A stretch of DNA of 64,000 bases from Escherichia coli (GCA_002099625.1 GCA_002099625.1_4857.1); one strand, 5' to 3'. Shown: positions 9,413 to 20,750, counted from the stretch's first letter. The notes: generated from the letters alone by a model not told the origin. Numbers and translations are program-made.

Positions 9413-11912
9413 ATTTGATTATTACCCCTTCGTTATACACCGGTGGAAGCGTCACACCTTCTGGTTCTACGACACAGTAGGTGGCTTCGTTAAGTTTAGA
9501 ATGAACTTCCGCTTCATGCGAAACGACCAGCAATTGAGAAAACTCTCCCGACAACGCCAACGATTTAATGAAGTTAACTAATCGGTTTTTGTGTTCTTCA
9601 TCCATGCCTTCAGATGGTTCATCCAATAACAAAGGATAGTTTTGTAAACCAAGTGCTTTATACGCCGTTAAACGAAACATCATGTTGAAAATAATGCGCT
9701 GTGCTTTTGAACCTTTCTTCACATCCGGCACCAGTTCTTCATGGTCTTTTAATCGCACTGGGAATGTATAATCCAAATCCCCGTCGGTTAAATCGCATGG
9801 AATAACCTGCATCGGATATGCCCACACCATCTCAATATACCGATTCATTAAATCCATGATGCGTGTAATCGCAGAATAGAAGTAACGTCTCAGTAAACCT
9901 TTTTCAGGAGAGACCGCGTTAATAATCAATCTGGCGTGGTGATGCTCTTTAAGCAATTCAGCTTGCTCTTTCTCCAGTTCCGCTAAGCGGGCAATAGCGC
10001 CTTCCATTTGTCGAAAACGTTCGCGCGCCGAGGTGTATGCATCTAACTTCGCTTCACGCCGGTTTAATAACTCGCGGACCACGACATTATTAACGGAAAT
10101 GTTCATTTCCGATATTAGATGCTCGTAACCTTTTTGGAAGCGTTCAATTGCATCCTTGGTTTGTTGCAACTGAGCAGTCTCACGTTCCAACTCACTGGCT
10201 TGTTTACGGTATTCTATTAACCGCCGATTAGCCCCATCCAGCTGTGACCGTACGTGTTCGATTTTCTGACTTAATGCGCCGTCGACGTTACCGACCGCAG
10301 CAACCGCTTCCTGCCACTCTCTTTCTGCTGTTGCAAGTTTTGCCGACTGACGTAGGTACATCATAGCCGATTCCATTTCTTCGGTAAAGGCACGTGCAAT
10401 AGCACCATAACGATCACGTGACGTAGTGAAGATATCCAACTCTTGCAGTTTGCGGAAGAACAAACCCACAACAGGATGATTGGAGTAAGACATGACGATT
10501 TCTCGAATCGTTCGTAAACTGCGAACGTCTTCTTCAATCTCTTTGCGGTCACGCAGAAGACTTTCCATTCCGACTTTCAGCTGTTTCTTCCAACCCTCGT
10601 TATCGTTGATCGCATTCTCAATTTCAGGTAGCGACTTGCGAATACCTGGACGGAATCGGTGGTTACATTGGGGGCAATCGACTTCTGCGGTTTCTAAGAA
10701 GTGCTGACGGTCGTGGTACAAACCGTGTAACACATTCTCGCAGCGCTGCAGTTTTTCAGATAGGTCTGCGGAGGTTAAATCCATACCCTGTAAACGTTTC
10801 TCTAACGCGCCCAGACGCTCTGTTGTCTTTAATTGGTCCAGATGCATAGACAACGGCAAGTTCCAGTTACAGGCGTCGTTTAGTGTGCTCTGAATGCTAT
10901 CCACGTCGATGCGGGTACCTTCAAACAGTTCAGGGAACAACCAATTTTGCTGGAATGTCGAAAGTTCCTGTTTTAAGCTGTCGATGGTTTGCTTTAGGCC
11001 GGCGTGATTACGCATCAGGTACGATTGTCGCGATTCCTCGTCCAGTAGCTGGGACAACTCTTTGTTGTACATACTGCATTCGGTCTCGGCTGAAGCTGCT
11101 TGTTCGCGCCATGCCACTACACGACTTTGAAACTCGTTAATCAGCTCGTCGGAAGGCAGTACACCGTACCGTTCCATGATAAGCTTTACAGCTGGCTGTA
11201 ATGACACAATACGTTTTCGGATACTATCAACCGAAACGGCGTTGTCTAGGCCAGGTCTCGCTTCAATTGTGCGGTTTAATTCCTGAAGCTCAGCATCGAG
11301 TTCTTTCAAACGAACTTCTAAACGTGCACGATCTTCTTCATCATCAACGACGCGCATTTTTGCTTCGCCGATTTTTCGTCCGGTGTGTTCGATGGCCCCG
11401 CTTAAACTGGAAGCGAGTTTACGCAAACGTCGATAGCAGCCAACGACATACGTTAAATCCGATTCTGACATTAACGTAAACCATTTGCGACGAACTTCGG
11501 TAGTGGCGTCAGTTAATAAGGTCTCGCCATTAATTAACTCTTTGATTTCTTTGGTGATTCCGGTTAACTGTTCCACCATGGAGTTGTAAACTTTGGCGTT
11601 TACCGAGTCCACAATAGGGACGCCTTTGGTGATATTGAAAATACTACAAGACAAAGAAGACCCACGTCGCAGGACTTCAAACTTAAGACGGTCGTCCCCG
11701 ACTAACGCGTAGTTAGTGTAAGAACCACCTTCACGGAATTCAGATTTTGCTGGAGCTAAGGGGAGAAAAACAGACAGGAGGCTTGTTTTACCGCAACCAT
11801 TGCCACCGAGGATGATGGTAACGGTTGACTTAAGGGTGAAATCAAACGTTTCGATTTCGTGTAACCCCATACCGGTAAATCCTTTCAAAATGATACGTTC
11901 GACCTTGAGCAT
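9402..11912 (-). CDS. Rad50/SbcC-like ABC ATPase with coiled coil and zinc hook
   Basis: N-terminal Walker A GGNGCGKTS; C-terminal signature/Walker B LLLDEPSEGMD and H-loop VVSHE; long heptad-rich middle; central CPQC (C-x-x-C) hook-like motif. Confidence 0.8.
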   Translation of the reverse strand: MLKVERIILKGFTGMGLHEIETFDFTLKSTVTIILGGNGCGKTSLLSVFLPLAPAKSEFREGGSYTNYALVGDDRLKFEVLRRGSSLSCSIFNITKGVPIVDSVNAKVYNSMVEQLTGITKEIKELINGETLLTDATTEVRRKWFTLMSESDLTYVVGCYRRLRKLASSLSGAIEHTGRKIGEAKMRVVDDEEDRARLEVRLKELDAELQELNRTIEARPGLDNAVSVDSIRKRIVSLQPAVKLIMERYGVLPSDELINEFQSRVVAWREQAASAETECSMYNKELSQLLDEESRQSYLMRNHAGLKQTIDSLKQELSTFQQNWLFPELFEGTRIDVDSIQSTLNDACNWNLPLSMHLDQLKTTERLGALEKRLQGMDLTSADLSEKLQRCENVLHGLYHDRQHFLETAEVDCPQCNHRFRPGIRKSLPEIENAINDNEGWKKQLKVGMESLLRDRKEIEEDVRSLRTIREIVMSYSNHPVVGLFFRKLQELDIFTTSRDRYGAIARAFTEEMESAMMYLRQSAKLATAEREWQEAVAAVGNVDGALSQKIEHVRSQLDGANRRLIEYRKQASELERETAQLQQTKDAIERFQKGYEHLISEMNISVNNVVVRELLNRREAKLDAYTSARERFRQMEGAIARLAELEKEQAELLKEHHHARLIINAVSPEKGLLRRYFYSAITRIMDLMNRYIEMVWAYPMQVIPCDLTDGDLDYTFPVRLKDHEELVPDVKKGSKAQRIIFNMMFRLTAYKALGLQNYPLLLDEPSEGMDEEHKNRLVNFIKSLALSGEFSQLLVVSHEAEVHSKLNEATYCVVEPEGVTLPPVYNEGVIIKYAS

Positions 11913-11964
11913 GTTTGCCTTCTAATGAGAAAGTATTAGTCGTTCATATCCAAAAGGCCATGCG

Positions 11965-11997
11965 TAAAAAAGAAGAAATGGAACCCCGAAGGGTTCC
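11965..11997 (-). terminator. rho-independent terminator (approx coords)
   Basis: Stem GGAACCC/GGGTTCC, loop CGAA, T-rich tail on minus strand. Confidence 0.5.
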
Positions 11998-12008
11998 AGA
12001 GAGGAGAG

Positions 12009-12635
12009 TTACTGCGGAATAAACTTACGGTGTCCGAGCGATTCCCAAAAACTGTCGGTGCGCTCTTTGGTTAATTCATACCACGCACGCCCGGCATCAG
12101 AATCGACAACCTTTAACGTTTCAGTAAGCAGGAATTTGAACAGTTCAGCGCTACGACCAGGTGCTACACCGTCGAGATATATCGGAATTAAATAACCGGT
12201 TTTGATTTCTTCGTACGGTTGCGATTGGTGCTGACCAACAACCCAGGCATCAGCAGCGCTACCGACCAAAGTGGTGTTTACAGTTAACTCATCAGAAATC
12301 CAGTTAACTGTATCAGCCATTATTGAATCGCCATTGACGTAGAAGAAAACTAAACGTTTAGGTTGTTCCACCGAACCAGCCAAATCTAATGCAGTAGTTC
12401 CGGTGAAGATCGTATTATTGGGATTACGTTCTGCAATAGGTAGAGCAAACCATGCTTCGAGCTGTTCCCAGCTACGTGGTAATGCTTCTTTAAACCACTT
12501 TACTAGCCGCGGGTATTCCAGAAACCCTTCGACTTCTTCTTCCATCAGATTGATACGCAGTTTGGTATCCTGACGATTCGCTTTCTGACACGTCACCATG
12601 TCGTCAATGAAACGAATCAGGGTAATCTCGTTCAT
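12009..12635 (-). CDS. hypothetical protein (208 aa)
   Basis: Long ORF between two terminators. Confidence 0.65.
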   Translation of the reverse strand: MNEITLIRFIDDMVTCQKANRQDTKLRINLMEEEVEGFLEYPRLVKWFKEALPRSWEQLEAWFALPIAERNPNNTIFTGTTALDLAGSVEQPKRLVFFYVNGDSIMADTVNWISDELTVNTTLVGSAADAWVVGQHQSQPYEEIKTGYLIPIYLDGVAPGRSAELFKFLLTETLKVVDSDAGRAWYELTKERTDSFWESLGHRKFIPQ

Positions 12636-12651
12636 GTTTAATCCTTCTTCA

Positions 12652-12681
12652 ACAAAAAAAGAAGGTAGCCTACGGGCTACC
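12652..12681 (-). terminator. rho-independent terminator (approx coords)
   Basis: Stem GGTAGCC/GGCTACC, loop TACG, followed on minus strand by T7 run. Confidence 0.55.
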
Positions 12682-12689
12682 TCTCGTAT

Positions 12690-13190
12690 TTACAGCCCCA
12701 TATGCATAAGGGAAATGATTGGGACCTTACGGCCACGAATCATTGCATACGGTTCGTACATTTGTGCGTTAGTTTCGAATAACTCACAGGCCGGAATGCG
12801 GTCACCGGTAGAGAGTTGTAAGACTTCAATTTGGTCGCCCCAGAAGTTATTCACTAATACATGGTCGACCGTGTTGTCTTCACGACCTTCTGGGGTGTTG
12901 CAATAAGTGGCTGCAGCGTACCAGCCCTTACGGTATGCTTCATAACCCGCATGAAGCATCCGGTAGTACGGGCGAAGTTGTGGGGCATTCAGAGTAGCAT
13001 CTAGCCACTCGCTGTGAATGGTGTTAATTAATACGGTTGCTTCTGCTGGCCAGTCGGTGCGGTTTAGGGTTAACTCGCCTAACAGCTTTAATTTCCAGCC
13101 AGTGGAAAGAATAGCACGGGTACGTTCGGGATTGACGTTCATCTGAGTAAAGAAAGAAGAACGGGTATCGTCGAGAATGTTCATGTTCAT
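12690..13190 (-). CDS. hypothetical protein (start placed at Met23 of track ORF 12690..13256)
   Basis: Track ORF first codon is non-ATG without RBS; Met23 (MNMNILDD...) has AAGGA RBS 8 nt upstream. Confidence 0.5.
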   Translation of the reverse strand: MNMNILDDTRSSFFTQMNVNPERTRAILSTGWKLKLLGELTLNRTDWPAEATVLINTIHSEWLDATLNAPQLRPYYRMLHAGYEAYRKGWYAAATYCNTPEGREDNTVDHVLVNNFWGDQIEVLQLSTGDRIPACELFETNAQMYEPYAMIRGRKVPIISLMHMGL

Positions 13191-13319
13191 TTGCTTAATC
13201 CTTACGAGTAATAGTCGATTAAAAAGGACCCTGCGGCTAAGTGTTGGGGATATCACCGCAGGGCCAAAGTGAGATGGGTCGTCATCTCACGTTATAACAT
13301 CAGTCTGAAAACTTTTCGG

Positions 13320-13703
13320 TTACTGGTCGAGCGCTACTGAACCACGCACCACCCCTTGCTGTTCAATAACCAGGAGGCGTTGTTTGGTTTTCGTATTGTA
13401 AGCGAGCGACGCGCGAAGCGTCGGGTCGCACGTTATTGTCTCTACTGGCACAATCTCTTGTGCCTTTGAGTTCAACAGAAAGTAGTAACCTGCCGGACAA
13501 GTTTCCTCGCCCTTTGCGTGGACTAGGATGTACTCGTCGTGCCGGCTGACTTCTTCACATCTACCATCGTCACCAGTACAGACTTCGAACGAAGGCGGAT
13601 TGTACTGATACGGTGTGCCTGGTAGTAAATCTTCTACGCTGGTTGTAGCTGAAGCAGAAGCGGTAAAGAACACCGCCACGATAATACCCATAAATCCACG
13701 CAT
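13320..13703 (-). CDS. small secreted protein (signal peptide, Cys-containing)
   Basis: N-terminus MRGFMGIIVAVFFTASASA; AAGGAA RBS; several Cys in mature part. Confidence 0.6.
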   Translation of the reverse strand: MRGFMGIIVAVFFTASASATTSVEDLLPGTPYQYNPPSFEVCTGDDGRCEEVSRHDEYILVHAKGEETCPAGYYFLLNSKAQEIVPVETITCDPTLRASLAYNTKTKQRLLVIEQQGVVRGSVALDQ

Positions 13704-13716
13704 GTTGTTTCCTTAC

Positions 13717-14127
13717 TTAAAAGTCGAGTTTATTGATACCTACGTTTTTCTTAATCGTAGGGTCGTACATGATAACCGTCAGGGCATTATCACCTGGGTC
13801 GCGAGTAAACTCAGCAACGGCTTCACCACTGCAGGCTTGGTTATCATTGTAGTTCATGGATTCGGCTTGCCCGGTTGCCATGTTAATAACCCCGTATTCA
13901 GGGTCGCCACATGCGACACCGCCCATCGTTTTCACTAACAGGTAACGGTTGTTATCGGACATCGCAACGATCTGGCAGCTACCGCCTTGTACGTCAGAGT
14001 TCTGGCACCAGAACGGCCCGCCGTATTCGTGATCGTTAACAACTTTTGGTAACTCGATACTTCCAGCGCGAGCGAAGAAACTAATGGCCAGAGTAGCAAG
14101 TAAAACTGGTAATAAAAAATGTTTCAT
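13717..14127 (-). CDS. small secreted protein (signal peptide, Cys-containing)
   Basis: N-terminus MKHFLLPVLLATLAISFFARA; GAGGTG RBS. Confidence 0.6.
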   Translation of the reverse strand: MKHFLLPVLLATLAISFFARAGSIELPKVVNDHEYGGPFWCQNSDVQGGSCQIVAMSDNNRYLLVKTMGGVACGDPEYGVINMATGQAESMNYNDNQACSGEAVAEFTRDPGDNALTVIMYDPTIKKNVGINKLDF

Positions 14128-14149
14128 AATAGCACCTCAATTTTTTGAG

Positions 14150-14641
14150 TTATTCTGAATAGTCGATTGTTTTGATGGTTTCCATACCGTAGTACATAGC
14201 GATGGAGGCCAGAGTTTTGGTATCCGGTCGCTGTACAAAACCGGCCCTGAAATCTTTGCTGCAAATTTTCTCCACTGATAGTTCATCACGATTAGGGATA
14301 AGCCATAACGCGTCACCATTGTGACGGTCGACTGCACCCCACCAACCACCTGGGCAATCTTTATCGCCAGGACGGTGTACGATAGCGACACGACCGTTGA
14401 AGGATATGTCAACTACACGACACTGTTTCTTAAGCAGCTTACGCGCATTGCACCAGAACGGCTTATCATTAAGATTGATGGTGCGGGTATATGCTGGAAT
14501 GCTGCCGTTAATACTGCCCTGGAACCCGCTGAATTCGTCAGCGTGTGCCTTAGAAATCCGTAGCCCAACAACAACTGCCATCAACAGCACAGTAAAAAGC
14601 ACCACTTTGGCCAAGTGGCGATTAACGTTATTGCATTTCAT
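14150..14641 (-). CDS. small secreted protein (signal peptide; start at Met16 of track ORF)
   Basis: Met16 MKCNNVNRHLAKVVLFTVLLMAVVVGLRISKAHA is signal-like with GGAGA RBS. Confidence 0.6.
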   Translation of the reverse strand: MKCNNVNRHLAKVVLFTVLLMAVVVGLRISKAHADEFSGFQGSINGSIPAYTRTINLNDKPFWCNARKLLKKQCRVVDISFNGRVAIVHRPGDKDCPGGWWGAVDRHNGDALWLIPNRDELSVEKICSKDFRAGFVQRPDTKTLASIAMYYGMETIKTIDYSE

Positions 14642-15029
14642 TTTTAATATCTCCACGATTAAGGGTGATGCGACCGACGAGCACATCGTTGTGATAAAAG
14701 CTCACAGCAACCATATTCGGTAATTCCAGTGGTGACACACTGACCGAGGTGACTTTTGGTTGATTGCACGATATGTCAATCAACCGCTGATACATTTTCA
14801 ATTTCTTATCAGCGATAACCAGCCCTGTGCAGTTCTTACCGTCCGTCAGTCTGTAGATTTGTAACTGTTCGACCTCACGCATCAGTTCTGGTTTTTCATT
14901 CGGCGCAATGCCATAATCCGAATCAGCTGATGTGTATTCAGTCACGTCTGGCTTATCGAAAGCATAAGTTGCTGCAATACCACATGCGGCCAGAACTACT
15001 ACTGCTTGTAAGAACTTCTTGATAGTCAT
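14628..15029 (-). CDS. small secreted protein / putative lipoprotein
   Basis: N-terminus MTIKKFLQAVVVLAACG with lipobox-like LAAC. Confidence 0.6.
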   Translation of the reverse strand: MTIKKFLQAVVVLAACGIAATYAFDKPDVTEYTSADSDYGIAPNEKPELMREVEQLQIYRLTDGKNCTGLVIADKKLKMYQRLIDISCNQPKVTSVSVSPLELPNMVAVSFYHNDVLVGRITLNRGDIKNEMQ

Positions 15030-15051
15030 GTTTTACTCTATAGTCGATTGG

Positions 15052-15083
15052 TTTAAAAAAGAATAGGCTACCCGAGGGTAGCC
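15052..15083 (-). terminator. rho-independent terminator (approx coords)
   Basis: Stem GGCTACC/GGTAGCC, loop CGAG, T-run on minus strand. Confidence 0.55.
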
Positions 15084-15134
15084 AGTTGAGTTAATCTCTT
15101 AACTCTCACCTAGGTAATATATATCTGAGATATT

Positions 15135-15722
15135 TTACAATGTGAAGGTTGTGTTAAGAATACGAAAACCCAATGCTCGCTTAGCGATTTGCATATTTGC
15201 AGGCGTGAAGTCCACCAGTTTGATTTGAACGATCGATAAATCGTAAAGCTTGTGAAGCACTTCGATTTTGTGTCGCCAATCTGTTTTTTGGTGCAGCTCT
15301 ATCGTCGTCGGTAACTCACCCAGTCTCGGCAACTGCGCCCCAAGTAAACGATGATGGACTTTACCGTTTATAGTTGGGGTGCCTTCCGTGACCATCAGTC
15401 GCGCATCGATGTAGTTATTTCGCTTAGCGTACTCCATAAAAGTTTTGACATTTATCTTTTCCTCGTATAGAATGCTGCGAAAGTATTCGTAAATGATGTG
15501 TCCTGCCTCCCTACCGCTTTCCGAGTCTGGAATAACCTTATCGATGAAAATCGCAGAGACCACTTCGCTCCCACGCGAATGCATTGTAATGACCCTATCC
15601 CCGTGCTCTGCGGCAGTTAATAATCCACTCACATCAAGCCCCACCGGAAACAAGCCACGACTACGCATTACGTGCAGGTCTTCTAACTTGTTCTCTTGCA
15701 GTCGTAAAATACGTTCTGTCAT
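15135..15722 (-). CDS. hypothetical protein (195 aa from Met4)
   Basis: GAGGTG RBS 6 nt before internal ATG; track start is GTG. Confidence 0.6.
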   Translation of the reverse strand: MTERILRLQENKLEDLHVMRSRGLFPVGLDVSGLLTAAEHGDRVITMHSRGSEVVSAIFIDKVIPDSESGREAGHIIYEYFRSILYEEKINVKTFMEYAKRNNYIDARLMVTEGTPTINGKVHHRLLGAQLPRLGELPTTIELHQKTDWRHKIEVLHKLYDLSIVQIKLVDFTPANMQIAKRALGFRILNTTFTL

Positions 15723-15754
15723 ATACCACACCTCAAATTAATTTGAGTTAAGTG

Positions 15755-15796
15755 TAAAAAATAAGAGGACTCCAGTAACCGCGAGGGTTACTGGAG
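15755..15796 (-). terminator. rho-independent terminator (approx coords)
   Basis: 11-bp stem CTCCAGTAACC/GGTTACTGGAG with GCGA loop and T-rich tail on minus strand. Confidence 0.6.
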
Positions 15797-15801
15797 ATAA
15801 A

Positions 15802-16329
15802 CTACACACTCAACGTTTCAATGAATTTGATGCGCGCTGGGTGAAATGTGTGATAAACAGTTACTGGCGCGTGCGGGCCTTCGGCTGCGTGTATTGCGCC
15901 ATCGTATCCGCTCAGCAACAGATGGTCATATATCGCACTACAGTTATACGCCACCGATGCCCATAGTGGTAACTTGTCAAACTCTTTAGGGTGTTGGTGG
16001 TAAACCTCCATCAAACCCTTTTCAGGATGACGCTCTTGGATACGCTCCCACTCATTTGTTTCAATGAGCAAGTTCCCTTTCTTCTGTGCAACTGTCTGGT
16101 ATTGATGCGGGGAAAGAATCTCGCGGAAATTACCGATATCGACGAACGGGTCAGTAGGATCGTTGATAAACGGATTGGTGATTTCCAAAGAAACGTGGTT
16201 GATTAGCCAGCTGGGATTCGCTTTAACAATTTCAGCAGGGACATCGATGTCTTTATAGACAACTTGAGAACGTGAAAGGTTAGCCTCAACAAACGGCTTA
16301 TCAGTAACAATATAACCTTCGAGTTTCAT
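15802..16329 (-). CDS. hypothetical protein (175 aa)
   Basis: AAAGGAG RBS; ATG overlaps stop of upstream gene (TAATG). Confidence 0.65.
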   Translation of the reverse strand: MKLEGYIVTDKPFVEANLSRSQVVYKDIDVPAEIVKANPSWLINHVSLEITNPFINDPTDPFVDIGNFREILSPHQYQTVAQKKGNLLIETNEWERIQERHPEKGLMEVYHQHPKEFDKLPLWASVAYNCSAIYDHLLLSGYDGAIHAAEGPHAPVTVYHTFHPARIKFIETLSV

Positions 16330-20365: not shown

Positions 20366-20540
20366 TAAACCCCTAACTGTAACGATAACCCGAATCGCTT
20401 GTGCACAGTTAGCCACTTTTTTCGCACAAAAGCCGGTTTATTGTCAACTAATTTACGAGTCGGGGCAGTTAATATGCCTCGAAGTACAAGTAGTTGAACA
20501 TAGGGTTCTTCTGCTATCATTTGTTAATGGAGATAAGTAA

Positions 20541-20750
20541 ATGAGCATTCGTGAAATCACCGCAGGCAGCGACGTTTCTGGTCTGGTAGAAGCAGGCACC
20601 GTTCAGGTTTCTGGACTGAGCACCGTTACCGAAGTTACCGAAGCGCTGGCTAAGAAAGCCGAAGCTGAAGGCGGCGTAGCATTTAAAGTTACCGCTTGCG
20701 GCGGCAACAACAAAATGTTCGGCAACGCCATCTATTACATAAACGCGTAA
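20541..20750 (+). CDS. small DUF1471 (YdgH/BhsA/McbA)-like protein lacking signal peptide
   Basis: 69 aa; by-eye alignment to BhsA-type mature domain: GTVQVSG...TEALAKKAEAEGGVAFKVT...NNKMFGNAIYY; in-frame stop immediately upstream of ATG excludes an N-terminal signal peptide; GGAGA RBS. Confidence 0.55.
   Translation: MSIREITAGSDVSGLVEAGTVQVSGLSTVTEVTEALAKKAEAEGGVAFKVTACGGNNKMFGNAIYYINA

Follow-up and report, generated by a model that had tools for sequence, protein, structure and literature searches.

Small genes arranged in tandem that share a short sequence upstream of their start codons raise two questions: what the shared sequence does, and what the encoded proteins have in common. An earlier note described such a run at this locus, comprising four or five small exported, cysteine-containing proteins with a shared upstream motif. 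The 64-kb window (the whole stretch of DNA that was analyzed) is DNA of a nucleus-forming jumbo phage of Salmonella that closely resembles SPN3US (about 97% identity), and four adjacent minus-strand open reading frames of 127–163 aa, denoted here as genes A–D, are the equivalents of SPN3US gp180–gp183. The operon layout, the export signals (as identified by a heuristic), the paralogy among the encoded proteins, and the genome-wide recurrence of the upstream motif are the descriptive parts of this analysis, and we hold them with high confidence. Both the secreted-protein operon and the motif are undescribed, but neither is a new type of thing.

Organization of the Locus and Predicted Protein Export

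The genes of the locus and the element that follows them are:

14628–15029, minus strand: gene A, 133 aa, equivalent of SPN3US gp180; exported (heuristic), two conserved Cys
14150–14641, minus strand: gene B, 163 aa from an ATG with a GGAG Shine-Dalgarno sequence, equivalent of gp181; exported (heuristic), four conserved Cys
13717–14127, minus strand: gene C, 136 aa, equivalent of gp182; exported (heuristic), four invariant Cys
13320–13703, minus strand: gene D, 127 aa, equivalent of gp183; exported (heuristic), four invariant Cys
12690–13190, minus strand: gene E, 166 aa, equivalent of gp184; without a signal peptide, unrelated to A–D, preceded by the motif (boxed)
12662–12683, minus strand: intrinsic-terminator-like hairpin 3' of E (terminator scan)

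Genes A–D are tightly packed, with a 14-nt overlap between A and B and gaps of 13–22 nt elsewhere; an alternative, upstream ATG would extend the product of gene B to 178 aa. The gene 5' of the A leader encodes a gp179 homolog, and its stop codon adjoins an early-promoter-like element. The layout is that of a single transcription unit, and it lies in the early or accessory part of the phage genome. The junction upstream of A is a hot spot of gene gain and loss, where an ~80-aa open reading frame, a 428-aa gene, and a 524-aa gene are variously present or absent among genera.

Export via Sec and cleavage by signal peptidase (SPase) I were evaluated with heuristic criteria, namely a positively charged n-region, an h-region of 10–15 residues, and small residues at positions −3/−1. 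The signal peptides of A–D have a net charge of +1 to +3 and a 12-residue hydrophobic core (Kyte-Doolittle mean of 2.5–3.2), and are followed by predicted cleavage sites of the A-x-A type (TYA↓F in A, AHA↓D in B, ARA↓G in C, and ASA↓T in D). The products of E, gp185, and gp179 fail the same heuristic. The proposed run of four or five exported proteins is therefore reduced to four, since the fifth gene, E, lacks a signal peptide. The mature proteins contain two (A) or four (B, C, and D) cysteines, in agreement with the several reported previously.

A lipobox had also been noted in one of these proteins. For assignment to SPase II, we required that the signal peptide end in [LVI][ASTVI][GAS]C and that orthologs keep this pattern. 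The tetrapeptide LAAC is indeed present in A of the window, but it is absent from the orthologs, which makes the lipoprotein call doubtful: the SPAsTU protein has LAFLG and no Cys at this position, in those of Asesino, ChrisDB, and Machina, position −1 is V, after which come further hydrophobic residues and then an A-x-A site, and some orthologs have a Cys in a non-lipobox context. The feature that is kept among orthologs is the SPase I site, TYA↓F. By this criterion, A is probably not a bacterial lipoprotein.

An Undescribed Family of All-Beta Proteins

Proteins B, C, and D are paralogs and form an undescribed, unannotated all-beta family with four invariant cysteines. With C as the reference member, BLASTP aligned B at an E-value of 4e-9 and D at 0.007; the corresponding PHROGs (phrog_17072, phrog_8968, and phrog_5248) yield mutual profile matches with E-values of 3e-8 to 1e-3. 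The four cysteines are invariant in 15 sequences of the family, and genes B and C have in common an exact 13-nt DNA repeat that encodes PFWC. The AF2 model of C is all-beta (pLDDT 85). That of A, which is of low confidence (pLDDT 60), has seven beta strands, like C.

Protein A belongs to phrog_9424, to which PHROG assigns no function. A BLASTP search with A gave no match, and hhalign against the B/C/D family gave a probability of only 5.5% (E 0.007) in an alignment that pairs the two cysteines of A with Cys3 and Cys4 of the family. Gene A may encode a remote relative of the family, and BFVD matches 6 and 7 (125–126 aa, TM about 0.5) may be A-type proteins. Paralogy within the run thus extends to B, C, and D on the basis of BLASTP and PHROG profiles; it is not demonstrable for A, and E is an unrelated, cytoplasmic protein.

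Homologs of B/C/D were found only in Seoulvirus-like and Erwinia jumbo phages and in the chromosomes or islands of E. coli, Shigella, and Edwardsiella. Protein C is 45% identical to an E. coli island protein, and the E. coli homolog is encoded in a CP4-like island, where it adjoins genes for an OLD-family/TOPRIM protein and a UvrD-type helicase (a Gabija-like pair). Searches of Pfam, NCBIfam, and PADLOC returned no match of the locus proteins to known exclusion, lysozyme-inhibitor, or defense families, and a sequence search of the PDB returned no match. Membership in the Ivy, PliC/MliC, PliG, or T4 Spackle families was rejected, given the lack of a sequence-family match in these four resources.

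Collectively, these features suggest that A–D would be small all-beta proteins that, after synthesis in the cytoplasm, pass through Sec into the periplasm, where the four cysteines of B, C, and D could form two disulfides. The proteins may bind an envelope or periplasmic target and, most plausibly, would block the entry of competing phages or mobile elements. We nonetheless regard the putative exclusion role as rather unlikely on balance; the homologs on enterobacterial mobile islands are the only supporting hint for exclusion or receptor masking. Several lytic phages encode periplasmic or envelope proteins that function in superinfection exclusion, such as Spackle and Imm of T4 and Llp of T5. 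Like these, A–D are small signal-peptide proteins encoded in the early or accessory region of a virulent phage; unlike these, they exhibit no similarity to them in sequence or fold. Spackle is helical whereas the model obtained here is all-beta with four conserved cysteines, and the lipobox of A that would parallel Llp is not kept among orthologs. The B/C/D family represents a compact, confidently modeled, predicted periplasmic fold without known relatives. Encoded by lytic jumbo phages as well as by E. coli, Shigella, and Edwardsiella islands, the family is a sensible choice for testing in assays of entry exclusion.

A Strand-Specific Box Upstream of Start Codons

The following copies of the shared motif, which had been placed before four gene starts, were evaluated at the locus:

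15040–15049, minus strand: box copy 1, AATCGACTAT; intergenic, ends 10 nt before the ATG of A
14159–14168, minus strand: box copy 2, AATCGACTAT; within the last codons of B (T-I-D-Y of TIDYSE-stop), ends 31 nt before the ATG of C
13720–13729, minus strand: degenerate match, ACTCGACTTT; within the last codons of C (KLDF-stop), ends 16 nt before the ATG of D
13211–13220, minus strand: box copy 3, AATCGACTAT; intergenic, directly after a T-run, ends 20 nt before the ATG of E

The 64-kb window contains exactly three copies of AATCGACTAT (13211, 14159, and 15040), always on the minus strand and only at this locus, compared to an expectation of 0.17; three copies were reached in 0 of 100 shuffles. 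The degenerate form MMTCGACTWT has eight matches in the window versus 0.97 expected. The motif is thus present as an exact copy before A, C, and E, but the match before D has two mismatches and scores 9.9 bits, which is in the range where chance matches abound. That match is not conserved in SPAsTU or Asesino and is probably not a real copy.

At the position of copy 1, related phages carry AATCGACTGT (SPN3US), AATCGACCAT (SPAsTU), and ATTCGACTAT (Asesino), and the position of copy 3 is also occupied by a box in SPAsTU, Asesino, Kwan, ChrisDB (CTGACCAT), and Machina (TTGACTAT). Copy 2 is specific to the SPN3US clade and is absent in SPAsTU and Asesino. Copies 1 and 2 have 20 of 25 flanking bases in common, suggesting that one of these local copies may stem from recombination.

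Screening of the whole SPN3US genome revealed that the motif, denoted here as the CGAC box (consensus AATCGACYAT, with the core TYGACYAT in other genera), occurs exactly eight times versus about 0.5 (0.54) expected, in each case on the local coding strand. A position weight matrix with a threshold of at least 13 bits identified 17 matches on the main coding strand, compared to 2.0 expected, and 13 of these are located 10–31 nt upstream of a start codon. The box precedes about 13–16 genes and in most copies lies 1–9 nt 5' of the Shine-Dalgarno sequence, usually as the final module of a leader cassette before the ribosome-binding site (RBS); in Machinavirus it abuts the Shine-Dalgarno sequence (TCGACTAT-CGAGGAG). 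The box is kept upstream of gp184 orthologs in five genera and also recurs in other genera, in leaders beyond those of SPN3US. No structural gene is preceded by any of about 15 copies, and the small box regulon includes an HTH protein, an HD-domain protein, and the secreted-protein operon. A genome-wide, strand-specific box at the starts of unrelated genes, with its position kept in five genera, supports, more strongly than the window alone could, the shared regulatory or translational element that the earlier note proposed, and the same distribution argues against its other proposal, a duplication footprint, as a general explanation.

Leader Cassettes with Early-Promoter-Like Elements and Hairpins

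Upstream of the box, the leaders of A and E contain the following elements:

15106–15129, minus strand: class-I early-promoter-like element, CTCAGATATATATTACCTAGGTGA, immediately following the gp179 homolog's stop codon
15088–15105, minus strand: A-leader hairpin 1, GAGTTAA-GAGA-TTAACTC
15055–15083, minus strand: A-leader terminator-like hairpin, GGCTACCCTCGGGTAGCC plus a T-run, between hairpin 1 and the box (terminator scan)
13290–13313, minus strand: degenerate early-promoter-like element, AGTTTTCAGACTGATGTTATAACG, just after the stop codon of D
13269–13290, minus strand: E-leader hairpin 1, GTGAGATG-ACGACC-CATCTCAC (from sequence)
13221–13265, minus strand: E-leader terminator-like hairpin 2, GGCCCTGCGG...CCGCAGGGTCC, with a 19-nt loop that contains TCCCCAAC, followed by TTTTT

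The class-I 24-mer, with at most 1–2 changes, occurs seven times in SPN3US, every time upstream of genes, and was identified in 40 distinct jumbo-phage leaders in IMG/VR. A hairpin occupies the position of hairpin 1 in 33 of the 40 (dG ≤ −4 kcal/mol, mean z of −2.7), with stem sequences that differ among leaders. All seven class-I elements in SPN3US are followed by a box. In total, about 20 sites in SPN3US resemble (C/G)AGATAGATATTAT or CAGATATATATTAC, and all precede genes. The repeated leader cassette comprises a putative phiKZ-type early promoter (CAGATATATATTAC-YTAGGTGA), a hairpin of variable sequence, the box, and the Shine-Dalgarno sequence. Boxes without any early promoter were identified before gp251, gp182, and the genes at 112267 and 114807.

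The layout of the A leader (hairpin 1, terminator-like hairpin, box) is repeated in SPAsTU. Upstream of E, Kwan has a clear GAGATAGATATTAC version at the position of AGTTTTCAGACTGATGTTATAACG, and an early-promoter-like sequence upstream of the hairpin is absent in Asesino, ChrisDB, and Machina. Hairpin 2 of the E leader is kept in six phages from five genera, with compensatory changes at 6 of 11 stem pairs and almost none broken. A GC-rich hairpin with a T-run, as in intrinsic terminators, is present at 15083–15066 and 12683–12662 (both from the scan) and at 13265–13227 followed by TTTTT; the hairpins of the A leader, of the E leader, and after E are accordingly terminator-like and represent putative terminators. 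An Rfam search of positions 11800–16000 of the window returned only a sub-threshold snoRNA match (25.5 bits versus a gathering score of 75).

The T4-type PeSLs (promoter-early stem-loop elements) are reportedly mobile regulatory cassettes. As in PeSLs, an early promoter and a stem-loop are repeated here between small accessory genes, and the cassettes are located at junctions of gene gain and loss, for example at the A junction in relatives. In contrast, PeSLs use host sigma-70 promoters whereas the cassettes described here would be read by a virion-borne phage RNA polymerase (RNAP); the latter also carry, between stem-loop and RBS, a further conserved box that can occur alone. Hairpin-plus-box signals function in antitermination in lambda nut (boxA/boxB) and in rrn leaders, which likewise combine a promoter-proximal, structure-conserved hairpin with a short, conserved, single-stranded box. 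However, the box in the A and E leaders follows the terminator-like hairpin rather than preceding it and has no sequence similarity to boxA, and an N-like or Q-like factor was not identified.

Early promoters of the phiKZ type are AT-rich, about 10 nt long, and centered near −10 (PMC7598289); the putative CAGATATATATTAC element resembles them in being AT-rich, highly repeated, and placed before operons. The order of elements in the A and E leaders (promoter, hairpin 1, hairpin plus T-run, gene), as read from the DNA, is similar to that of loci in jumbo phage 201phi2-1 where 5'UTR-derived small RNAs arise via premature termination (PMC11512511). If the terminator in these leaders works, an early RNA of about 60–85 nt would be released.

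Competing Explanations for the CGAC Box

The reading we favor, with a little less than an even chance, is that the CGAC box is a second, start-site-proximal phage promoter. The box would be read by a phage multisubunit RNAP with a transcription start site 1–2 nt after it, and boxed genes would be transcribed both from the early promoter and, past the hairpin or terminator, from the box itself; we infer the timing of their expression. At the E locus, the box lies directly after the covariation-supported GC hairpin and T-run in six phages from five genera, nothing else is conserved before the Shine-Dalgarno sequence in these leaders, and three of them have no upstream early promoter. Most copies of the box are followed by a pyrimidine-purine step. 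In addition, the box ends in ACTAT and thereby resembles a TAGTATG/ACTATG motif that is up to 28-fold enriched upstream of genes, precedes tail-sheath and baseplate genes, and fits the phiKZ late promoter T−3 A−2 T−1 G+1, all four bases of which are needed by the non-virion RNA polymerase, nvRNAP (PMC7598289). The box itself lacks the strictly needed G+1 and was rejected as a phiKZ late promoter since it ends in TAT or CAT and the next base is T, C, or A, and rarely G. Compared to the AR9 late promoter (A−11 A−10 C−9 A−8, N6, T−1 A/G+1; PMC7598289), AATCGACYAT-TA matches at AA (−11/−10) and TA (−1/+1) in 7 of 14 SPN3US copies but has TC, not CA, at −9/−8, and the AR9 enzyme additionally needs uracil-containing DNA. 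The box is short, directional, and near the RBS, like nvRNAP promoters, which span only −11 to +1, but its conserved CGAC core is in neither the phiKZ nor the AR9 consensus. With the phiKZ middle motif (an A-rich stretch plus TACT at −22), transcription here would begin no earlier than the start codon. Tandem early and middle promoters have been described for PHIKZ054 (PMC8244752) and for the ‘continuous’ genes of AR9 (PMC7598289).

Several observations argue against a promoter. The 5'UTRs of phiKZ are mostly 31–40 nt (PMC8244752), whereas a promoter at the box would give leaders of only about 13 nt, and the tight spacing between box and Shine-Dalgarno sequence is at least equally compatible with an RNA element linked to the RBS. 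With only about 15 copies and none before a structural gene, the box cannot be a general middle or late promoter. Moreover, in SPAsTU, Asesino, Kwan, and ChrisDB an ~80-aa open reading frame follows the same terminator-like hairpin without a box, indicating that read-through of the hairpin must occur anyway. No mapping of the transcription signals of enterobacterial nucleus-forming jumbo phages (SPN3US, Erwinia phages) was found in the literature searched.

The main rival, which we consider possible but somewhat unlikely, is that the box is an mRNA operator just 5' of the Shine-Dalgarno sequence, mostly in early transcripts. It would be recognized by an RNA-binding protein or endoribonuclease, encoded by the phage or the host, resulting in translational repression like that by T4 RegA, in cleavage of the leader that removes the 5' hairpin or attenuator, or in a mark for mRNA export or translation. 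The 1–9 nt distance to the Shine-Dalgarno sequence in most copies, its reduction to direct abutment in Machinavirus, the strict strand specificity, and the adjoining hairpin that is conserved in structure and variable in sequence are consistent with such an operator, as are the location of 9 of 12 SPN3US copies within the transcribed leader of an early promoter, the box after seven of seven class-I promoters, and the read-through transcription implied by the ~80-aa open reading frame in relatives. Between 8 and about 70 nt separate the box from the early promoter; this variable distance also suits an operator and shows that the box is not part of the early promoter. Conversely, no partner was identified, complementarity to 16S rRNA was not above that of shuffled controls, no Rfam family matched, and it would have to be coincidental that the 3' half of the box resembles ACTATG, the late-promoter-like sequence. 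At E in ChrisDB, Machina, and Asesino, there is no promoter-like sequence 5' of the hairpin and T-run, such that an RNA copy of the box would be made only via terminator read-through.

It is improbable that the box is a functionless remnant in mobile cassettes spread by recombination or duplication, as in T4 PeSLs, with the local copies as duplication footprints. From the box up to and including the Shine-Dalgarno sequence (AATCGACTATTAATCTAAAGGAGTATT), the gp66 and gp101 cassettes hardly differ, and the shared flanks of the copies before A and C (20 of 25 nt) and the gene gain and loss at the A junction point in the same direction. Yet the box is kept at the gp184 position in five genera while flanks, spacer, and stems have diverged, it occurs alone without a promoter or hairpin, and the hairpin sequence varies freely where that of the box does not. 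A DNA operator for a phage factor that switches off or roadblocks early units appears more improbable still. The Cro/CI-type HTH protein gp101 (HTH_3 and HTH_26 domains) could serve as such a factor, and the perfect cassette before its gene would permit autoregulation. However, the box is non-palindromic, single at each site, and strand-specific, which is unusual for a dimeric Cro/CI-type HTH protein, and where it sits follows the RBS and not the promoter. Members of this phage family carry out early transcription inside a membrane vesicle (bioRxiv 10.1101/2023.09.20.558163), and access of a cytoplasmic protein to DNA in the vesicle is doubtful. Lastly, chance combined with coding constraint is a very improbable source of the local pattern. 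The paralogs end in similar residues (..IDY.., ..LDF, and ..LDQ) whose ATC-GAC or CTC-GAC codons give TCGAC, the copies before C and D fall within the codons for the C-termini of B and C, chance alone could yield the one before D, and four other MMTCGACTWT matches occur elsewhere in the window when counted irrespective of gene starts. Copies 1 and 3 are intergenic, which refutes this explanation for both; three exact 10-mers compare with 0.17 expected, and across the genome the motif is enriched only at positions immediately 5' of the start codons of unrelated genes.

Implications for Gene Expression in Jumbo Phages

These observations point to three candidate signal classes, namely an early promoter with two subtypes, the TAGTATG late-like motif, and the CGAC box. 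A more far-reaching interpretation, which we regard as speculative and unlikely, is that early promoter, hairpin, and CGAC box constitute a dedicated leader code for a regulon of ~15 genes in enterobacterial nucleus-forming jumbo phages, in which the box is a new class of RNAP promoter or an RNA tag, and that B, C, and D are new disulfide-bonded, periplasmic, entry-blocking effectors shared with mobile islands. In the RNA-tag version of such a code, a phage factor would control the export, processing, or translation of mRNAs made in the early infection vesicle or the phage nucleus. If the box is a promoter, the known promoters of non-canonical multisubunit RNAPs, a poorly understood set, would gain a further class. 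If the box is instead an RNA operator, early mRNAs would be under post-transcriptional control in a phage whose transcription and translation are kept apart.

Phage Identity and Operon Organization

Positions 12600-15200 of the window share 97% identity with Salmonella phage SPN3US and about 40 related phages (Seoulvirus; 240-kb genomes). As phiKZ-like jumbo phages, these have two multisubunit RNA polymerases, one virion and one non-virion (PMC7598289). Five minus-strand genes, denoted A to E, match SPN3US gp180 (A), gp181 (B), gp182 (C), gp183 (D), and gp184 (E), each of them annotated as 'hypothetical', and no mention of gp180-gp184 or of promoters was found in the SPN3US literature that could be searched. 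Genes A-D and their boundaries are arranged as follows:

15083-15055, minus: upstream operon boundary, hairpin and T-run
14628-15029, minus: gene A
14150-14641, minus: gene B, ATG start with GGAG on its 5' side, 14-nt overlap with the end of A
13717-14127, minus: gene C
13320-13703, minus: gene D
13265-13221, minus: downstream operon boundary, hairpin and T-run

Gaps of 22 nt and 13 nt separate B from C and C from D, respectively, and a scan for terminators between A and D returned none that was credible, a match within the signal-peptide codons of B being probably spurious. The tight packing and the lack of a credible terminator between the genes indicate that A-D form one operon. A sigma-70 promoter scan of the locus yielded zero minus-strand sites, with total sites below those in shuffled sequences. 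Synteny of the operon is kept in all phage genera compared, and the number of small genes varies from three to six.

Among the genomes of SPFM6, SPFM7, SPFM8, SPFM10, SPFM12, SPFM15, and SPFM20, several have gp180-gp183 split into 3-6 tblastn pieces, with annotated proteins of odd length; this most likely reflects frameshift sequencing error rather than biology. A few kilobases from the locus, RefSeq records a small DUF1471 (YdgH/BhsA/McbA-like) protein at SPN3US 160063-160272 (window ~20540-20750), which would be another phage-encoded host-type periplasmic protein.

Export Signals and Protein Family

Signal peptides were evaluated with a simple heuristic comprising n-region charge, a 12-residue hydrophobic core, and the -3/-1 rule. 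A-D are each predicted to carry a typical Sec signal peptide, cleaved at TYA|F, AHA|D, ARA|G, and ASA|T, respectively, in agreement with the earlier note on this DNA, which had assigned signal peptides to the genes at 13320, 13717, 14150, and 14628. The possible fifth exported protein of that note, E, fails the same heuristic, as do both flanking genes, and the locus therefore encodes four exported proteins, not five. The lipobox that had also been proposed is present in A of the window (LAAC), but the lipoprotein call is unsupported, as orthologs lack the lipobox (LAFLG in SPAsTU, V at -1 in others). Since the lipobox is not conserved, A is read as an SPase I substrate.

Pairwise alignment, which had been suggested as a check on paralogy, supports it for B, C, and D. 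B, C, and D match one another's PHROG profiles and align pairwise, and all four cysteines are invariant across an alignment of 15 B/C/D homologs; B and C also have in common a 13-nt exact DNA repeat coding PFWC. A, on the other hand, falls in a separate PHROG and has no BLAST similarity, and a profile-profile comparison aligned its two conserved cysteines with Cys3 and Cys4 of the family at a probability of only 5.5%. For C, AlphaFold gives a confident all-beta model (pLDDT 85) of seven strands; the model of A is weak (pLDDT 60) but likewise seven-stranded.

Sequence searches of Pfam, PHROGs, NCBIfam, PADLOC, and PDB provided no functional name, and those of Pfam, NCBIfam, PADLOC, and PDB were empty. 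A BFVD structure search returned only proteins of Erwinia jumbo phages. The family profile also matched two large multi-domain proteins, P0048 and P0065, but these carry Ig/fn3 repeats and the matches were discounted as spurious. In searches of 5.8 and 1.8 billion proteins, the family comprised about 40 clusters at 50% identity, with named members from Seoulvirus, Erskinevirus, Machinavirus, and Wellingtonvirus phages and from chromosomes of E. coli, Shigella, and Edwardsiella tarda, including one E. tarda genome with three copies. One E. coli homolog (45% identity to C, with a predicted signal peptide) was identified in 78 of 5,426 complete E. coli genomes. It is encoded inside a CP4-like integrative island (GCA_031915785.1 contig, L002:1-16411) with AlpA, a YeeP-like GTPase, DUF932, an antirestriction protein, RadC, DUF987, CbeA/CbtA, and an Mrr-like nuclease; OLD-family/TOPRIM and UvrD-type helicase genes (a Gabija-like pair) directly adjoin the island. 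The family itself is absent from the libraries and literature that could be searched, and it belongs to a known kind, the secreted accessory proteins of phages.

A Box Upstream of Start Codons

A 10-mer, AATCGACTAT (the CGAC box; consensus AATCGACYAT), occurs exactly three times in the window (15040, 14159, and 13211, all minus) against 0.17 expected, a count reached in 0 of 100 shuffles. Its end lies 10 nt upstream of the ATG of A, 31 nt upstream of that of C, and 20 nt upstream of that of E. Four copies had been claimed in the earlier note; those before A, C, and E are exact, but the copy before D, ACTCGACTTT, which falls within the final codons of C, departs from the motif at two positions, shows no conservation, and has a score within the range of chance.

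For motif counts, the SPN3US genome was assembled from five fetched pieces. The exact 10-mer was found eight times (0.54 expected), always on the local coding strand. A weight matrix at ≥13 bits gave 17 matches on the main coding strand against 2.0 expected, 13 of which lie 10-31 nt upstream of a start codon, so the genome-wide motif search that had been called for shows enrichment at gene starts. Boxed genes comprise gp5, gp30, gp55, gp56, gp66, gp101, gp135, the genes at 112267 and 114807, gp180, gp182, gp184, gp249, and gp251; weaker copies precede three further SPN3US genes. The boxed genes are mutually unrelated (gp101 is a Cro/CI-type HTH protein and gp251 is annotated as an HD domain protein), which argues against the box being a duplication footprint of paralogs, as had been entertained, although the copies before A and C have 20 of 25 flanking bases in common. 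The other reading put forward there, a regulatory element, holds up and can be refined to a leader cassette that recurs throughout the genome. The earlier observation is thus real, with four corrections. The box is absent from the libraries and literature that could be searched (a search for the string TATATTAC was uninformative) and belongs to a known kind, phage promoter or leader cassettes.

Two annotated starts next to a box are probably wrong. For gp30 (RefSeq gp236; SPN3US 23859 versus 23886), the true start is probably 27 nt upstream of the annotated one, at an ATG that has a GGAG Shine-Dalgarno and lies 18 nt past the box. In the Machina gp184 ortholog (gp195), annotated with a TTG start, the likelier start is an ATG 21 nt further downstream, preceded by the box and a GAGG Shine-Dalgarno.

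The Leader Cassette

An AT-rich element lies 5' of the box in 9 of 12 SPN3US copies and recurs about 20 times, in the form (C/G)AGATAGATATTAT-CTnnGTGA and in a tighter form, CAGATATATATTAC-YTAGGTGA. It fits the description of the early (virion RNAP) promoter of this phage group (PMC7598289) and is a putative early promoter. All seven tighter-form sites in SPN3US are followed by a hairpin and then the box. In 33 of 40 distinct IMG/VR leaders, the sequence immediately 3' of TAGGTGA has a fold of -4 kcal/mol or better (mean z -2.7), with differing stems; the leader hairpin is conserved in structure, not in sequence. The cassette of A and the leader of E, which have the same order of elements, are as follows:

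15129-15106, minus: A cassette, putative early promoter
15105-15088, minus: A cassette, hairpin
15083-15055, minus: A cassette, terminator-like hairpin and T-run
15049-15040, minus: A cassette, box
15029, minus: ATG of A
13313-13290, minus: E leader, degenerate promoter
13290-13269, minus: E leader, hairpin
13265-13221, minus: E leader, hairpin and T-run
13220-13211, minus: E leader, box

In these two leaders (15055-15129 and 13221-13313), the elements run promoter, hairpin, terminator, box, RBS, whereas at other sites in the genome the terminator comes first, ahead of promoter, hairpin, and box. If the terminator works, the A and E leaders would release early RNAs of ~60-85 nt, and 5'UTR-derived small RNAs have been reported in the related phage 201phi2-1 (PMC11512511). 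Between D and E, the terminator-like hairpin (13221-13265, minus) has a 19-nt loop whose C-rich motif, TCCCCAAC, is conserved in six phages of five genera. The hairpin may do more than terminate, for instance as the body of a small RNA derived from a 5'UTR or 3'UTR.

At the end of many terminator T-runs stands TTTTTTAC, as upstream of window 11912, 15722, and 4574 (minus) and at SPN3US 165052, 168841, 176689, and 181012. The string is weakly enriched (13 versus 7.3 expected, 12 on the main coding strand), and six phages conserve it ahead of the SMC and gp179 genes. With its TTAC end in common with the early element, it could represent an additional type of promoter. The tighter (class-I) element at window 15106-15129 and at SPN3US 56293, 65412, 94238, 113985, 165686, and 223276 contains TTAGGTGA, an 8-nt stretch that also occurs in the promoter of SP6 RNA polymerase (ATTTAGGTGACACTATAG). 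Around its box, gene A has CGACTATAGAG, which resembles the ...CACTATAG initiation region of T7 and SP6 promoters. To our knowledge, SPN3US-type phages have no single-subunit RNAP, and this likeness is therefore probably coincidence.

Conservation Across Genera

In the leader of the gp184 ortholog, the box lies directly 3' of the T-run in all six phages compared, as AATCGACTAT in the window and SPAsTU, ATCGACTAT in Asesino, AATCGACTTT in Kwan, CTGACCAT in ChrisDB, and TTGACTAT in Machina. Spacer and stem sequences differ among these leaders, with compensatory changes in 6 of 11 stem pairs, and no early-promoter-like sequence was found in the gp184 spacer of Asesino, ChrisDB, or Machina. At five or six Machina genes, the box (TCGACTAT or TTGACTAT) lies immediately next to the Shine-Dalgarno (CGAGGAG), an arrangement also found in ChrisDB, Huxley, and uncultivated relatives.

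The box also stays with gene A. SPAsTU, Asesino, ChrisDB, and Kwan have an extra ORF of ~80 aa (MELV...DxYRVIxCS..LGDV) that lacks a signal peptide and separates the terminator-like hairpin from the box. This ORF is located at (L009:2345-2584, L010 ~2335-2580 [unannotated], L011:2848-3099, and L012:2761-3006) in the pieces from relatives and is missing from the window, SPN3US, and Machina. Asesino and Kwan have an additional 428-aa or 524-aa gene at the A junction, which makes this junction a hot spot where genes are inserted and deleted.

How the Box May Work

That the box is itself a promoter is a tentative reading, to which we give a little less than an even chance. Nothing else in the gp184 leader is conserved from the canonical hairpin and T-run to the RBS, some boxes lack an early promoter, and the box ends in ACTAT, like a TAGTATG/ACTATG motif. 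In a k-mer screen of SPN3US, TAGTATG(A)/ACTATG was enriched up to 28-fold in the interval 10-55 nt ahead of start codons. The motif is found in front of virion genes, including those for tail sheath and baseplate (SPN3US 161426, 158704, 229224, and 64407; window ~19386 and 22108), matches the phiKZ late promoter TATG, and looks like its counterpart (PMC7598289). The 12-mer AATCGACYAT-TA likewise fits the AR9 late promoter, with AA at -11/-10 and TA at -1/+1 (PMC7598289), and PHIKZ054 has tandem early and middle promoters (PMC8244752). However, the box keeps close to the Shine-Dalgarno (1-9 nt away, in one case 20 nt), so a promoter there would give leaders as short as 13 nt. Further, structural genes lack the box, it occurs mainly within early-promoter leaders, and transcription must cross the terminator-like hairpin anyway, since the ~80-aa ORF lies 3' of it in relatives.

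The short distance to the Shine-Dalgarno, the preference for early-promoter leaders, and the absence from structural genes would each suit an RNA operator, yet the box has no rRNA complementarity and no Rfam family, and we consider this reading, the main rival, somewhat less likely than a promoter. A functionless remnant of the cassette is improbable, and an HTH operator slightly more so. An Rfam scan of window 11800-16000 gave no match above threshold. Pairing of the box with 16S and 5S rRNA was no better than that of shuffled boxes, and a 9-bp match to 23S rRNA (p ~0.02) was judged to have no bearing. TTGACT in the Machina box was ruled out as a -35 element, as the -10 would fall inside the gene. 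The phiKZ middle promoter has TACT at -22 (PMC8244752); applied to the box, this model was rejected because the start site would fall at or beyond the ATG despite the conserved Shine-Dalgarno between them.

Role of the Exported Proteins

The features of the A-D proteins that bear on their role are predicted export, four invariant cysteines (B-D), a compact beta fold, and tandem expansion with variable copy number. Their operon sits behind an early-type promoter, and homologs are found on bacterial mobile islands. We infer that the proteins contain periplasmic disulfides and bind a target in the envelope. Superinfection or entry exclusion would be their most plausible role, by analogy with the small proteins that phages and conjugative elements export.
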